This document shows positions 26,135 to 61,583 of a stretch of 64,000 nucleotides of DNA, one piece after another (within the stretch, counting starts at the first letter, position 1; every line of letters begins with the position of its first letter). The DNA is from a virus. The stretch is from IMG/VR virus record IMGVR_UViG_3300050196_000100, positions 8,392-72,391 of that record, one strand, 5' to 3'. The notes under the pieces were generated by a model. That model saw only the letters and a list, made by a program, of their open reading frames with translations, was not told the DNA's origin and ran no database searches. Made by a program: the position numbers and the translations under genes.

Positions 26135-26234
26135 CCCTGGCACCAATATGGTTAATAATGGTAACTGTGATACTAATGTTCTTCTACGGAGCAAACAGAA
26201 GAAACTAAGGAGGCGATGAAATCTGATAAAGACA

Positions 26235-26642
26235 TTGACGATGCTTGGGATGGCATTGGTGCTGTGGATGGCATTGCCAATGGTTGCATGGGGGCAAGGG
26301 ATAACTTTAGATGACAGTGAGTTCCAGAGGGACATGGAGGTGCTGAGGAGTAAACCAAGGTGGACTGAGGTATGGGTAGACGCGTCGGCATACACAGCCT
26401 CCTCGGATGAATGCGGGAAAGGCGATGGTATTACTGCGAGTGGAGTGGTGGCAGTCGAAGGAGTAACCATAGCATGTGATGATTTACCCTTTGGGACGGT
26501 GGTAGAGCTCGATGGTCATACCTATATAGTCCAAGATAGGTATGGTGGTGGCTATGTGAATCGCATAGATGTATTTATGGATTCTAAGATTTCTGCGGAT
26601 GAATTTGGGAGGGAAAAATTACTGATGAAAATCAAGGAGTGA
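26235..26642 (+). CDS. Secreted 3D-domain protein (lytic transglycosylase-like)
   Basis: Signal peptide, SAYT, GITASG, IACDDLPFGT, VQDR.GG...RIDVFM. The SD-linked ATG (26216) is one base out of frame, so there may be a 5' frameshift. Confidence 0.75.
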   Translation: MTMLGMALVLWMALPMVAWGQGITLDDSEFQRDMEVLRSKPRWTEVWVDASAYTASSDECGKGDGITASGVVAVEGVTIACDDLPFGTVVELDGHTYIVQDRYGGGYVNRIDVFMDSKISADEFGREKLLMKIKE

Positions 26643-27262
26643 TTATTGTGACCATGCCGATTGATCTATTGGGTAAAGTATTCTCTAGGCTATCTGTGAC
26701 AAGGAGATCAGAAAACACAAAAGGAGGTAAAGCAAAATGGGAGTGTATTTGCGAATGCGGCAACACTAAAGTAGTGTCTGGAGAAAACCTAAGAAACGGC
26801 AGAACAAAGTCATGTGGGTGCTATGGTGCGGAGGTTACATCTAAGCAATTTAAAACACATGGATATACCAAAACTCCAACATATGGAACATGGCAAGCAA
26901 TGAGAAAGCGATGTACTAATCCAAGGGATACTTATTTCAATTACTACGGTGGACGAGGAATCACTGTCTGTGATTCATGGAATACTTTTGCTAATTTCTT
27001 AGAAGATATGGGAGAAAGACCTAAAGGCATGACCATAGACCGTATTAATACTAATGGAAATTACTGCAAAGATAACTGCAAATGGTCAACCTCAGAAGAA
27101 CAAGCCAATAACAAAAGTAATAATCATAATATAACAATAGACAATCAAACAAAGACGCTCACTGAATGGTCAAGAATATATAATATAGACCCAAAGATTA
27201 CATGGAAGCGCATGAACAGGGGATGGAGTAATGATAAACTATTTATACCTATAGCTCAATAG
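26639..27262 (+). CDS. HNH homing endonuclease
   Basis: DLLGKVFSRL, WECICECG, TIDRINTNGNYCKDNCKWST. Confidence 0.85.
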   Translation: MIIVTMPIDLLGKVFSRLSVTRRSENTKGGKAKWECICECGNTKVVSGENLRNGRTKSCGCYGAEVTSKQFKTHGYTKTPTYGTWQAMRKRCTNPRDTYFNYYGGRGITVCDSWNTFANFLEDMGERPKGMTIDRINTNGNYCKDNCKWSTSEEQANNKSNNHNITIDNQTKTLTEWSRIYNIDPKITWKRMNRGWSNDKLFIPIAQ

Positions 27263-27423
27263 TCAACGGAATACCACTGGGAACGAAGGTTACCATAGAT
27301 GGCAAGGAATACACTGTAGAAGACCGCATGATGTGCGATGGGTACGTTGATATTTACATGGACAGCATTGAGGACTGCGTGAACTGGGGTGTCCAGAGGA
27401 AAACAATGAGAGTGGAGGAATAA
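27262..27423 (+). pseudogene. Orphaned 3' half of a 3D-domain gene
   Basis: Translates VNGIPLGTKVTIDGKEYTVEDRMMCDGYVDIYMDSIEDCVNWGVQRKTMRVEE*; no start codon; parallels the C-terminal half of 26235-26642. Confidence 0.75.
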
Positions 27424-40566: not shown

Positions 40567-41510
40567 ATGAGTAACGGAGGTAAACCTATGAAGCAATGTT
40601 CAAACTGTGGATGGTCAAATGATCTATCGTATTACGAAGGTAAGCTAGGCTTATGCGGTAGTTGCATAAGTAAGTCAGAGGGAGACACCAAGTTTCCCCT
40701 CTGGAGACCCCAGTATAACAAGGTAGGTACAATGCCACCCACAGACCAGCAAGTGTCAATGGCATACTTCGCATTCCTAGACATCCTAGTAGCCAATGGA
40801 GTGGACATAGATGACTCGATGGAGTCCATATACTTCGCAGGGTTTCACACAGGATACATTAAGGGACAGGAGGTTGGATGATGAAGATAACTAAGGAAGG
40901 TCTAATATCATACCTAAGAGGCACTGCGACGGTCATTGACAGCAAAGTTAGTGTTTTGATGGACAATGAGGTAACCACAGCATCCCAAACTAAACTATTG
41001 AAGCTATGCATACAAGGAGACCTAATGGAGACATTGATTACTAAGATTAACAATAGATTCGAGGAGGTAGACAATGTTTAAAGACATGGAAGAAGCAAGG
41101 GAATTACTCCACACAGCCGTAGGTATAAACGACGGGTATACTAAGATGTTGCTACGGAAGGACTCCTTGATCTTAGAATTAGAGGCGACCATTGAAGCAC
41201 TAAAGAGACGCGTGGAGGAACTTGAGAATGCCTATGAGATTCCACGAACTGCGGAGGTGTCACAATGAAATACCAAAATATGGACAGAGACTTAGCTATT
41301 GCCGATATTGACAAACGATTGGATGCGCTGGAAAACCCAGTGGACTACTATGCTGAATACCGAGACTTAGAAGATAGACATAGAATCCTCCGCAACACAA
41401 TAAAGGAAGCATTAGTAGCACTGGAGCCTTGGTATTCCCATGGTCAAGCAGGGAGTCCTATGGATGCAGTAAATGCGTTGAAGAACATTGCAAAGGCGGT
41501 GAATTCATAG
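40567..41510 (+). CDS. Cluster of small hypothetical ORFs
   Basis: 40567-40881, 40878-41081, 41074-41268, 41265-41510, translationally coupled. Confidence 0.5.
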
Positions 41511-42113
41511 ATGACAGCACCCACATTGCTGACTAAACTATCCATTGACTGGATTGATGTGAAGAACAAGTGTCGCATCACTGTAAACAAAGAGGATTCA
41601 CTGAATCCTGTGACTCCTGAGTTCAAGCAAAGATTACTTCTTAGTGAACACAGCCCCATTAGACTCCTAAGAGTATCATGGAAATGGTCATTGAAGTCAT
41701 GGATTGCAGTGCATTTCTCTCGTCATCACATTGGATGGGAAAAGTGGGTATCAACGCAACGCAATGACCGCACAGGGATAGACCGCGATACTTCCACGCA
41801 GGATACAATGGTCAATATGTCCATCGAAGCTAATGCACAGGCACTCATTAATGTATCAAAGGTCAGGCTATGTTACAACGCTCACACAGAAGCAAGGGAA
41901 CACATGGAAGACCTAAAGAGAGCGTTGTATGGCACGGAACCAGAGCTTGCAGAGGTTATGCAGCCTAACTGTGTCTACCGCTGTGGGTGTCCTGAGTTTG
42001 CCCCATGTGGGTACTGGAGAGTATTCACTGCCAAACATAGTAACATCGACTTTACAGATATTACAGAGAGGTACAAGGCAGCTAATGAAGATTTCTTTGG
42101 AGGTAAACGATGA
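41511..42113 (+). CDS. thyX: FAD-dependent thymidylate synthase
   Basis: EHSPIR, HFSRH, STQR, NAQALIN...RLC, CVYRCGCPE. Confidence 0.8.
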   Translation: MTAPTLLTKLSIDWIDVKNKCRITVNKEDSLNPVTPEFKQRLLLSEHSPIRLLRVSWKWSLKSWIAVHFSRHHIGWEKWVSTQRNDRTGIDRDTSTQDTMVNMSIEANAQALINVSKVRLCYNAHTEAREHMEDLKRALYGTEPELAEVMQPNCVYRCGCPEFAPCGYWRVFTAKHSNIDFTDITERYKAANEDFFGGKR

Positions 42114-42204
42114 ATAAAACCATAACAATCACTGGTATCCCTGCGGCAATCATTGTATTCTCCGCAGTCTATGGTGTACTAAGTTTTGCAAAGTGGGTGA
42201 TACA

Positions 42205-42795
42205 ATGACAGCATCTAAGTTCAGCCTAGGTGACACCATCCGCATAGCCACCAATGATAACTGCGGATTCCCCAAAGGTCACATTGGCACCATCACTGAA
42301 GTTTGCCCCACGCAGTACGAGGTTGACCATGGGTATTACTATGATGACCATGAACTCGAAGGTGTCCAACAACGCATTAGAGGATTCCTACGAGTCCAAG
42401 AGGACTCAGGAGTACCATTGCCAGTAAGGGCGACCCGTGGTAGTGCAGGATATGATATGGCAGTCACAGAGGATGTGGTACTGTCACCAGGTTCATCCAT
42501 GGTTTACCCCACTGGCATTAATAGCTATATGGCAGACGATGAATACCTAGCAATCCATGTACGTTCTTCCATAGGTATCAAGCAGTGTGTAGTGCTGTCT
42601 AATGGTACTTCTATAATTGACAGTGATTTTTTTCCTAGGGAAATTATGATAGCACTAAGAAATCAAGGGACTAAACAATGCTTTATTGAAAAAGGCAGTA
42701 GGATTGCCCAAGGAATATTTAGCAAATATCTACTATGTGATAACGACAATGTAAATACTTTAAGAAGTGGAGGTATCGGGAGTAGTGGCAAATAA
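42205..42795 (+). CDS. dut: Trimeric dUTPase with N-terminal small beta-domain extension
   Basis: RAT.GSAGYD, VRSS, IIDSDF, RIAQGIF, RSGGIGSSG motifs I-V. Confidence 0.9.
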   Translation: MTASKFSLGDTIRIATNDNCGFPKGHIGTITEVCPTQYEVDHGYYYDDHELEGVQQRIRGFLRVQEDSGVPLPVRATRGSAGYDMAVTEDVVLSPGSSMVYPTGINSYMADDEYLAIHVRSSIGIKQCVVLSNGTSIIDSDFFPREIMIALRNQGTKQCFIEKGSRIAQGIFSKYLLCDNDNVNTLRSGGIGSSGK

Positions 42796-43510
42796 TAAAA
42801 AAATAGTACGATGCTTAGTATGTGAAAAAGAGGAGTATGTTTGCCCAAGCAGATTAGCGTCATATAAAACATGTTCCAAAGAATGTTCCTCAACATACAG
42901 GATATTACAAAATCAACAAAATAGGCAACTTATAAAATGTGCAATATGCGATAAGATCCTTAAAATAGGCAATCAAAGGATATCTGATAGTAAAACAAAA
43001 GAATTCTGCTGTAGCTATGAATGCTCATCAATTCACCGCAAAACAACTATGGCTGGAACTAACAACCATCAATACGGATTAAAAGGATCAAACAACTCAT
43101 CATTCAAAGGTGATACTAGAATAAATATACATGGATATGAATTAACCTATTCTCCAAACCATCCGTTTAGAGATTGTGATGACAAAGTTAGAACACATCG
43201 ATTAGTCGCCGAGGAGTATTTGCTAACTAATGATAATTCCGTAGAAGTCAATAGAGTTAAATATCTAAATCCCAAACTTGAAGTTCATCATATTGACGAA
43301 GACAAGCTTAATAATAACTATAATAATCTTATAATACTAACTAAGTCAGAACATATGAGGTTACATGGCAAACAAAGGAATTTACAGAGAGGCGAAGATG
43401 GTCGTTATATTGCCCAAGGAATCTTCCAGAAGTACCTAGTTGCCGATGGAGACAATGTAACCACAGTTAGACGGGGTGGCATCGGTAGCACTAACTATGT
43501 CCAACGGTGA
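42785..43510 (+). CDS. HNH homing endonuclease carrying a dUTPase C-terminal peptide
   Basis: Zn-finger Cys pairs, HRLVAE, EVHHIDEDKLNN..NNL..LTKSEHMRLH; ends IAQGIFQKYLVADGDNVTTVRRGGIGST. Confidence 0.85.
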   Translation: MANNKKIVRCLVCEKEEYVCPSRLASYKTCSKECSSTYRILQNQQNRQLIKCAICDKILKIGNQRISDSKTKEFCCSYECSSIHRKTTMAGTNNHQYGLKGSNNSSFKGDTRINIHGYELTYSPNHPFRDCDDKVRTHRLVAEEYLLTNDNSVEVNRVKYLNPKLEVHHIDEDKLNNNYNNLIILTKSEHMRLHGKQRNLQRGEDGRYIAQGIFQKYLVADGDNVTTVRRGGIGSTNYVQR

Positions 43511-43871
43511 CACAGCTTGTGTCCATAAGGAGGAATTCAATGCTAGAACTTAGTACCTACAGCTACTACATATTTCGCAATGCTGACCAATGGTTACGCA
43601 TAGGATTCCACCAAGGCGAAACCTCAACTCACCTAGCATACATAGAGGAACGTGGTGTCGAAGCACTGTTCCTTGGTACTCTTAGACTCCCATTAAAGAT
43701 TGACATTGACACTTTGACAGGCATTGGCTCAAAGAAGTACCTAGACACCACTGTAGTCACCTGTAAAGGCATCGGAATCATGATGACCAAGGCTGACAAG
43801 GGAAAACCCTTCCTAGTACTTCAGCAGGAATACTTTATGAATTCCAAGAGAAGTCAGGAGGAATACATAGA

Positions 43872-44510
43872 ATGCAAAGGTTTATAAGCAAAATCGAGGA
43901 TGAACTATGCACCCTACAGTCCATTATGGATGGTGACCCAACAATGAATGCCTGTGACATCTTGGAAGCAAGGGAGGATACAAGGAAGATTCTGAGACTT
44001 CTCAATGAAGTCTTAGTTTCCTCTAGATTAGATAGGAATGACCGAAGGATATTCTATATGTACGTCCTTGGGTACTCTGAGAATGCCATAGCAAGGAAGG
44101 TTGGCATGGGTCAACCTGGGATACACAAAAGGATTACCAAGTTACATTCTAAGATTATGCCATGTGGGAACATAAGAACCCTTAGTGACCTTTGGGAGAT
44201 TCTGCAACACCCGCAGTCAACTAAGGAAGCCAGTGTACCCGAAGTTAAGCTCAATCTATTCTTTGACTCTGCGGTTAAATCATGGGACAAAAGCGGGTGG
44301 AATCATAGTCGATCTAGGGGAGAGAACAAAAGAAAACCAAAAGAGTACCTAAGTACCAAGCCAAAAGGAGATTACATATGGGAATCAAAGGCAGTCTGCA
44401 AGGTGCCAGAGTACTTCCATGAGTCCTTTGGAGACGATAGTACCCGATGTGGGTACTGTGGCATTCAGTGTTCCAGACGAAAGGTGAATTCCTATGACAA
44501 ACCAAAGTGA
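43872..44510 (+). CDS. Sigma70 region-4-like HTH protein (phage sigma factor or activator)
   Basis: LDRNDRRIFYMYVLGYSENAIARKVGMGQPGIHKRI. Confidence 0.55.
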   Translation: MQRFISKIEDELCTLQSIMDGDPTMNACDILEAREDTRKILRLLNEVLVSSRLDRNDRRIFYMYVLGYSENAIARKVGMGQPGIHKRITKLHSKIMPCGNIRTLSDLWEILQHPQSTKEASVPEVKLNLFFDSAVKSWDKSGWNHSRSRGENKRKPKEYLSTKPKGDYIWESKAVCKVPEYFHESFGDDSTRCGYCGIQCSRRKVNSYDKPK

Positions 44511-60701: not shown

Positions 60702-61583
60702 ATGACCGATCCCATAGGTCTATTTGTTATTCACGGGATCGAAATAAACGAAAGGATCGATACAAATATGAAAGGTAAAAAGCTAACAATAGAATTTGTG
60801 GAAAAGATATTCAAGTCCGTAGGATTGCAGTTACTAGAAACAAAATATATTAATAGTTCTACTAAAATGAAAGCATTATGCTCTAAACATGGTGAAATAA
60901 TGCATAGATATGACAGAGCACGTATTGGTAAAGGATGCCCTAAGTGTGGACGTGATATATCTACCGAAAAACATAAACTAACACTTGATTATGTAAGAGG
61001 ATTATTTGAAACTAAAGGATATGACCTTTTAGAAACAGAGTATATAAATAATACAGTTAAAATGGAGTTTATGTGTAGAAAACATAATAAAAAAGGATCA
61101 GTAAATGTTGCTGGCTTAAATAAATCAATACATAATTGCAAGTATTGTGTTATCGATTTACAGACTGGAGATAAAAGTCATCTATGGAGAGGAGGAGTTA
61201 CTTCCCTAACTAGGTATCTTAGACCTCACTTATCTTTCTGGGTACAACAGCAATTCAAACGCACAAATTATCGATGCGAATTAACTAATAAACAAGGCAC
61301 TCTTAATGTTCATCATATGTTTAGCTTTAAGAAAATCCTAGATATTACTATGAATGAACTTAATATGGATACTAGGGAAACCATAGGTGATTACACAGAA
61401 TACGAATTACAACTAATCACTGTCAATCTTATAAAGAACAATGATATCTTAGCTAACCCGAAGGTTTTACTAGAGTCAGTACACCAAGAGTTCCATAGTT
61501 TTTGCGGAGGGAATCATAGCGAAACCTCTCAGGAACAATGGAACTCTTTTGTTTTGCAACGAAATAAAGGTGAATTAAGCTAA
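60702..61583 (+). CDS. Zn-finger/HNH-type homing endonuclease upstream of terL (likely true start ATG 60769)
   Basis: Repeated LLET.YIN...KM...C.KH, GCPKC, LWRGG, CEL...LNVHH...H..FH; AT-rich. Confidence 0.7.
   Translation: MTDPIGLFVIHGIEINERIDTNMKGKKLTIEFVEKIFKSVGLQLLETKYINSSTKMKALCSKHGEIMHRYDRARIGKGCPKCGRDISTEKHKLTLDYVRGLFETKGYDLLETEYINNTVKMEFMCRKHNKKGSVNVAGLNKSIHNCKYCVIDLQTGDKSHLWRGGVTSLTRYLRPHLSFWVQQQFKRTNYRCELTNKQGTLNVHHMFSFKKILDITMNELNMDTRETIGDYTEYELQLITVNLIKNNDILANPKVLLESVHQEFHSFCGGNHSETSQEQWNSFVLQRNKGELS

Follow-up and report, generated by a model that had tools for sequence, protein, structure and literature searches.

The dUTPase gene (dut) at positions 42,205 to 43,510 of the analysed window, a 64,000-nt stretch of phage DNA whose positions are used below as + strand coordinates, most probably received an approximately 800-bp free-standing HNH homing-endonuclease cassette (about 42600-43408), copied from a donor of lower GC content, with the native end of the gene left downstream. 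The cassette would consist of the 3' portion of the donor dut, from motif III to the stop codon, together with an HNH gene that begins within this portion, ribosome-binding site included. It would replace the native interval between motifs III and IV, the native tail from the IAQG codons onward would stay downstream, and the HNH ORF, lacking a stop codon, would read through to the original dut stop. Two proteins are expected from this arrangement, an intact chimeric dUTPase and an HNH protein that ends in a vestige of dUTPase. Coordinates of the individual features are given in Table 1.

Table 1. Features of the dut-HNH locus and its downstream neighbour (window positions).
Feature	Position	Strand	Remarks
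Chimeric dUTPase gene	42205..42795	+	Pfam PF00692, E 7e-20; all five motifs
Putative native dut 5' two-thirds	42205..42600	+	GC 0.48, GC3 0.45; phage-like composition
dUTPase motif AGYD	42445-42456	+
dUTPase motif RSS	42562-42570	+
dUTPase motif IIDSDF (motif III)	42613-42630	+
Putative foreign dut 3' third (motif III to stop)	42600..42795	+	Forms the left of the cassette; GC3 0.235, low-GC tract running on into the HNH gene
dUTPase motif RIAQG	42700-42714	+
14-nt direct repeat, copy 1	42703..42716	+	Codons for IAQG plus 2 nt
dUTPase motif V	42763-42792	+
HNH Shine-Dalgarno and start codon	42770..42787	+	GGAGG at 42770-42774, GTG at 42785; within the replacement dut tail
HNH endonuclease proper	42785..43408	+	HNH_3; GC 0.33; without its own stop codon
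Two Cys4-type pairs	N-terminal half of the HNH protein
HNH motif	43283-43366	+
14-nt direct repeat, copy 2	43409-43422	+	Opens the putative native tail remnant
Putative native dut tail remnant	43409..43510	+	End of motif IV to motif V and stop; in-frame C-terminus of the HNH ORF; GC3 0.47
Phage gene-junction dyad	43509..43523	+	Overlaps the TGA stop of copy 2; appears to mark the original dut end
Downstream phage gene	43540..43887	+	Outside the cassette; homologue at the same place in the syntenic phage L009

The dUTPase ORF (42193/42205-42795) and the HNH ORF (42785-43510) overlap by 11 nt and share a 30-residue dUTPase tail at their C-termini, which reaches from IAQG, at the end of motif IV, up to and including motif V and forms codons 209-238 of the HNH ORF. 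According to the alignment of the two copies (42703-42792 against 43409-43498), 20 of 30 amino acids and 59 of 90 nucleotides are identical. The initial 14 nt are the same in both copies, in a pair that is otherwise about 65% identical. This word, ATTGCCCAAGGAAT, occurs in exactly two copies within the window, at 42703 and 43409, while 0.03 matches are expected by chance with one mismatch allowed. Candidate explanations for the identity are microhomology at the junction, later gene conversion and a conserved recognition sequence. Removal of one repeat along with the intervening DNA leaves dut in frame. A duplicated dUTPase tail with a shared 14-nt start is also what the preliminary description of this DNA reported, and its coordinates and sequences agree with those found here.

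As for base composition, GC3 equals 0.45 in the 5' part of dut, 0.235 in 42592-42795, 0.259 in the HNH gene and 0.471 in the second tail copy, with flanking phage genes having about 0.45-0.47. These values bear out the earlier remark that the first copy is AT-rich like the HNH gene and the second phage-like. In a likelihood scan of 41500-44500 the best two-breakpoint GC model places the breaks at 42600 and 43385 (log-likelihood ratio 19.4 nats). The likelihood around the left breakpoint is flat over roughly ±40 nt, and a left break at 42703 is disfavoured, being about 4 nats worse than 42600. On this compositional evidence the foreign tract appears to begin about 100 nt 5' of the duplicate, at or near motif III. 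Insertion at the IAQG codons, as previously proposed, thus holds for the right-hand junction, but not for the left one.

The end of the second copy carries a further marker. Within the window, 22 copies of the dyad GACACA-N3-TGTGTC (at most one mismatch) are spread over positions 8766-54774, all of them on the + strand, in comparison with 0.3 expected. The 25-mer around 43509 is unique, the repeated unit being the 15-nt dyad. The "motif copy" noted earlier at 43509 is therefore real, as one of the 22 dyads, and since it overlaps the stop codon of the second tail copy while none follows the upstream copy, the downstream copy stands in the phage's native end-of-gene context. Sequence similarity points the same way. 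The tail of P0005 is 79% identical to copy 2 and 62% to copy 1, and that of P0003 72% and 66%, respectively; among relatives, these two proteins stand nearest to the dut 5' part, and P0005 is also among the best matches of copy 2 overall. This ranking is weak, because both tails fall in one dut subfamily by sequence comparison. Taken together, composition, the junction dyad, the similarity ranking and the sibling system described below support the assignment of copy 2 as native and copy 1 as imported.

The chimeric ORF is assigned by sequence to the trimeric dUTPases (PF00692), motifs I-V all being located in it, including the C-terminal motif V arm. The earlier suggestion of an imported motif V that keeps the dUTPase intact therefore stands as far as intactness is concerned, but the replaced part would comprise motifs III, IV and V rather than V alone. 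Compared with the 5' part's nearest relatives (P0003, P0005 and others), the presumed foreign third lacks about 5 residues in the loop between motifs III and IV, as would fit a chimeric gene. In locus L021 a dut with a comparably short loop precedes a related HNH gene. At its N-terminus the dUTPase is extended by about 55 aa (42205-42370), as is typical of a phage dut subfamily, and the metagenomic phage dUTPases P0002-P0006 and P0188-P0219 share this extension.

The HNH product matches Pfam HNH_3 (PF13392) with 33.5 bits against a cut-off of 24.8 (E 3e-8), as well as several PHROG "HNH endonuclease" families (best E 1e-12). The invariant residues H168, H169, N176, N177, N181, H190 and H194 are present, in agreement with the His...Asn...His pattern of the beta-beta-alpha-metal motif, and 26 of 26 invariant columns of a 22-member family alignment are retained, so the gene does not look decayed. 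A PDB sequence search with the HNH protein returned no relative. The gene-caller product (P0121) begins at the GTG at 42785, which is the sole plausible HNH start and lies inside the codons of the replacement motif V; its use is inferred from sequence. With the Shine-Dalgarno sequence and the start codon both inside the replacement tail, the tail and the HNH gene form one unit. A functional role of motif V within the HNH protein was considered and set aside as unsupported, the remnants differing in length among relatives.

During co-infection the HNH enzyme would cut or nick HNH-less dut alleles in the region of motifs III-IV. Repair would then copy the cassette by means of dut homology on both sides, the left arm lying upstream of motif III and the right arm being the tail, and donor-type junction codons would protect the carrier allele. 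Such cleavage-immune recoding, already part of the preliminary description, is a plausible hypothesis.

A close relative of this phage, whether HNH-free or HNH-bearing, was not found in the collections searched. Megablast with 3 kb against 50,697 phage records gave no match, peptide-pattern scans with dut or its 5' part gave no relative in IMG/VR, JGI metagenomes or GTDB genomes, a degenerate DNA pattern for the copy-2 peptide had 0 matches in IMG/VR and metagenomes, and a search through the downstream gene returned none. Protein searches with dut reach best homologues of 53-56% identity. The search with the upstream ThyX-like gene yielded one syntenic relative, L009 (79.6 kb, IMG/VR), whose dut is only 43-49% identical and hence not decisive on the native tail. 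In L009 (4812-5896) an unrelated HNH_3 gene overlaps the dut stop, with no duplicated tail. In this phage group, different endonuclease genes seem to have settled repeatedly at the 3' junction of dut.

The HNH part matches, according to tblastn, crAss-like phages and Bacillus phage IEBH (NC_011167), the latter with 29.6% identity over 79% of the query. In IEBH the dUTPase gene gp23 is followed by gp24, an HNH gene annotated as "DUTPase superfamily", which starts inside motif V of gp23 and whose C-terminus is a second dut tail. The IEBH system thus has a related HNH, an identical layout and the same junction motifs as the locus described here. It differs in the host group, in having its right junction just after RIAQG instead of just before IAQG, and in lacking the 14-nt direct repeat. 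Its database record offers no interpretation of the arrangement.

Alignment to HNH-free relatives, proposed earlier as a check with the expectation that their dut tails match the downstream copy, was run on the IEBH system and gave a result in the predicted direction. The dut tails of the HNH-free LY4, MY192, PfEFR-5 and phage 250, and the DNA beyond them, are co-linear with and nearly identical to the downstream, HNH-fused copy of IEBH; the opposite outcome, HNH-free relatives with the upstream tail, was not seen in this system. IEBH departs from these relatives at motif III and rejoins them immediately after the RIAQG codons, and the sibling Bacillus cassette therefore shows presence/absence polymorphism at one site. 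The earlier claim that the original tail was captured as an HNH fusion is supported at the present locus too, by the GC3 of copy 2, the dyad at its stop and the identity of the native copy in the sibling system.

The cassette measures 638 bp in all five cases, namely IEBH and the IMG/VR loci L039, L040, L043 and L044. Between IEBH and L039 it is 91% identical, in comparison with 77% for the 5' part of dut and 62% for the tail and downstream DNA. L043 and L040 have longer left-hand donor-type tracts, of different length. An element more conserved than its flanks and co-conversion tracts of variable extent are thus both found in the sibling system, where the 638-bp unit has the marks of a mobile cassette whose ends are defined and whose co-conversion varies. 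In the window described here the corresponding evidence is the tract of foreign composition that extends upstream of the insertion point.

The association with dut extends to the wider HNH clade. Pieces of dut lie next to the HNH gene in at least 29 of the 33 best IMG/VR loci, and more distant HNH loci have none. Many HNH homologues carry a precomputed dUTPase domain, motif-V-like C-termini or a fusion to dut. Three layouts can be distinguished: dut followed by HNH, with or without a motif V remnant, as in this window (type A); HNH followed by a whole dut in frame, in some cases with a short dut N-terminal piece before HNH (type B); and dut split at motif III with HNH between the pieces, annotated as an intron in crAssphage (type C). 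The crAss-like phages of the latter type, with an "intron-encoded HNH endonuclease" in dut (Carjivirus communis KP06_gp34/gp35, cr1_1 and cr50_1), hold the closest annotated relatives of the HNH protein (37-40% identity, nearly full length). They share with the present locus the target gene and the break of dut at motif III, where the foreign tract starts here. Their dut, however, is in two pieces with no duplicated part, and its expression presumably needs splicing, whereas none is needed here.

The type C split, the left cassette end of IEBH and the left composition break at the present locus coincide in motif III to within one or two codons. From these positions we infer that motif III DNA may be the target of these HNH enzymes; less probably, motif III could simply offer the nearest conserved block in which recombination between diverged dut genes can resolve. 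A possible but still doubtful generalisation is that the HNH clade is a homing family specialised on dUTPase, all members of which break dut at motif III and use one of three interchangeable solutions, with the remnant serving as a homology arm. The three ways may be an intron-like split (crAss-like phages), HNH placed upstream of a replacement 5' part or whole dut, and, as at the present locus, HNH following a replacement 3' part. The native remnant kept by the free-standing forms may be a second homology arm rather than debris. If this is true, both arms lie in one conserved gene, and the cassette could move between unrelated phages whatever the neighbouring genes.

P0134 is an HNH homologue with two successive dut tail remnants, a motif IV-V piece and then a second motif V, which look like stacked relics of two invasions. 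In L028 (2115-3016) dut stops at motif III and is followed by an HNH ORF ending directly in a motif V remnant, with no complete dut, and the cassette apparently left its target gene broken. L045 (2544-3181) is of type A with the HNH gene frameshifted into two ORFs, the second ending in a motif-V-like remnant, which suggests a copy in decay. In Vibrio phages 1.189 and 1.239 (L010:1432-2278 and L012:1432-2277) HNH relatives with 43-44% identity adjoin or are fused with an NTP pyrophosphohydrolase gene and not a trimeric dUTPase.

Among the other explanations of the locus, a one-off illegitimate recombination with a lower-GC phage, with the HNH gene carried along passively, or even dead, and homing by the endonuclease playing no part, is unlikely, yet it fares best. 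The composition block indicates foreign origin and not mechanism, and the 14-nt repeat could be a microhomology junction, both of which such an event would accommodate. The layout and both dut junction positions, however, are found again in an independent lineage with an HNH of only about 30% identity, and in that sibling lineage a cassette of fixed length sits in divergent backgrounds. The tight dut association of the clade, its intron-like members at motif III and the full set of invariant HNH residues also speak against a single accident.

A tandem duplication of the dut tail in situ, with the HNH gene landing later between the copies and the upstream copy being native and diverged, is highly improbable. 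It agrees with the placement of both tails in one dut subfamily, but third codon positions are identical in only 13 of 30 cases, so that synonymous differences are saturated, and GC3 differs between the copies (0.23 vs 0.47). Moreover, the low-GC tract is unbroken from motif III of dut through the HNH gene, the HNH start lies inside the upstream copy, and the upstream copy of the sibling system can be shown to be foreign.

Scarcely credible is a group I intron or other spliced element, by which 42703-43408 would be removed from the mRNA and dut would use its native tail. It gains some colour from the related HNH genes of crAss-like phages, which interrupt dut at motif III and bear an intron-encoded annotation, but Rfam gives no match at this locus at E <= 0.1 with permissive filters, and no intron was detected by Rfam in this locus, IEBH or two crAss loci. 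The 706-nt insert is taken up completely by two coding stretches, an in-frame dut tail with all its motifs and a stop, and the HNH ORF that overlaps it; with no non-coding sequence within 42703-43408 there is no room for a group I ribozyme core (P3-P9). The foreign tract also reaches upstream of the supposed splice site, into coding sequence. An intein was rejected, the element being a separate ORF and the dut copy having its own stop.

The principle of a homing cassette that supplies a spare gene end is not new, and corresponds to the fungal mitochondrial mORF gene hybrid; its recurrence in phages is what the present data show. Such hybrids are described for atp6, atp9, cox2 and nad3 of Glomus sp. 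(Beaudet et al. 2013, PMC3630166) and, as cited there, for atp6 of Allomyces macrogynus (Paquin, Laforest & Lang 1994). In both the mORF hybrids and the present locus the order is gene core, foreign C-terminus joined in frame, endonuclease ORF and, last, the native C-terminus, and in the hybrids the native copy matches endonuclease-free relatives, with the two copies about 64-81% identical at the nucleotide level (PMC3630166). The mORF-type architecture is thus found at this locus. The differences are that mORFs encode LAGLIDADG or GIY-YIG enzymes in organelle genomes, whereas an HNH_3 enzyme, a tailed phage and a nucleotide-metabolism gene are involved here, and that the HNH gene of this locus starts within the replacement tail and runs to its end through the native one.

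Phage T4 offers a second comparison, its gene 56 encoding a dCTPase/dUTPase. Intronless homing by free-standing T4 endonucleases is known for SegF/gene 56, SegG/gene 32 and MobE/nrdB, where the enzyme cuts within the neighbouring gene, distant from its own gene, and the intervening sequence is co-converted (review PMC2988022). As in T4, a promoter-less endonuclease gene directly follows its target and overlaps the upstream ORF, and the segF overlap is also 11 bp (PMC2988022). The seg and mob genes, however, occupy intergenic positions and depend on homology in the following gene, with no duplication of the target and no remnant fused to the nuclease. A non-exhaustive literature search returned no phage paper on HNH-borne replacement of the dut end or on the arrangement of this HNH clade; the dut specialisation of the clade is the more novel and the less certain part of these results.

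According to these observations, phage homing endonucleases can live inside a coding sequence of the essential type without an intron or intein by means of a spare gene end. Such events yield chimeric enzymes and "HNH-dUTPase fusion" gene calls, by which annotation and gene phylogenies are misled. They also mark exchange hot spots between distantly related phages, the cassette here coming from a lower-GC source. IEBH, with the HNH gene, and LY4, without it, are both isolated phages and may suit measurement of gene-internal intronless homing and mapping of the target of this uncharacterised HNH clade.

The window contains other probable endonuclease insertions. At 26220-27423 a second instance of the layout is found: the first gene ends at 26642, with GC3 falling from 0.54 to 0.41 in its 3' part, and is followed at 26651-27262 by an HNH endonuclease different from that of dut (PHROG phrog_374, E 8e-70, GC3 0.32). 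The start-less frame at 27238-27423 (GC3 0.55) is a diverged repeat of the C-terminal ~50 residues of the gene ending at 26642. The lowest-GC patch of the window (about 0.32), at 60702-61583, corresponds to an ORF of 293 aa that immediately precedes the large terminase gene. This ORF matches PHROG endonuclease/HNH families with E about 5e-12, has no Pfam match, and is probably a third homing-endonuclease-like insertion.
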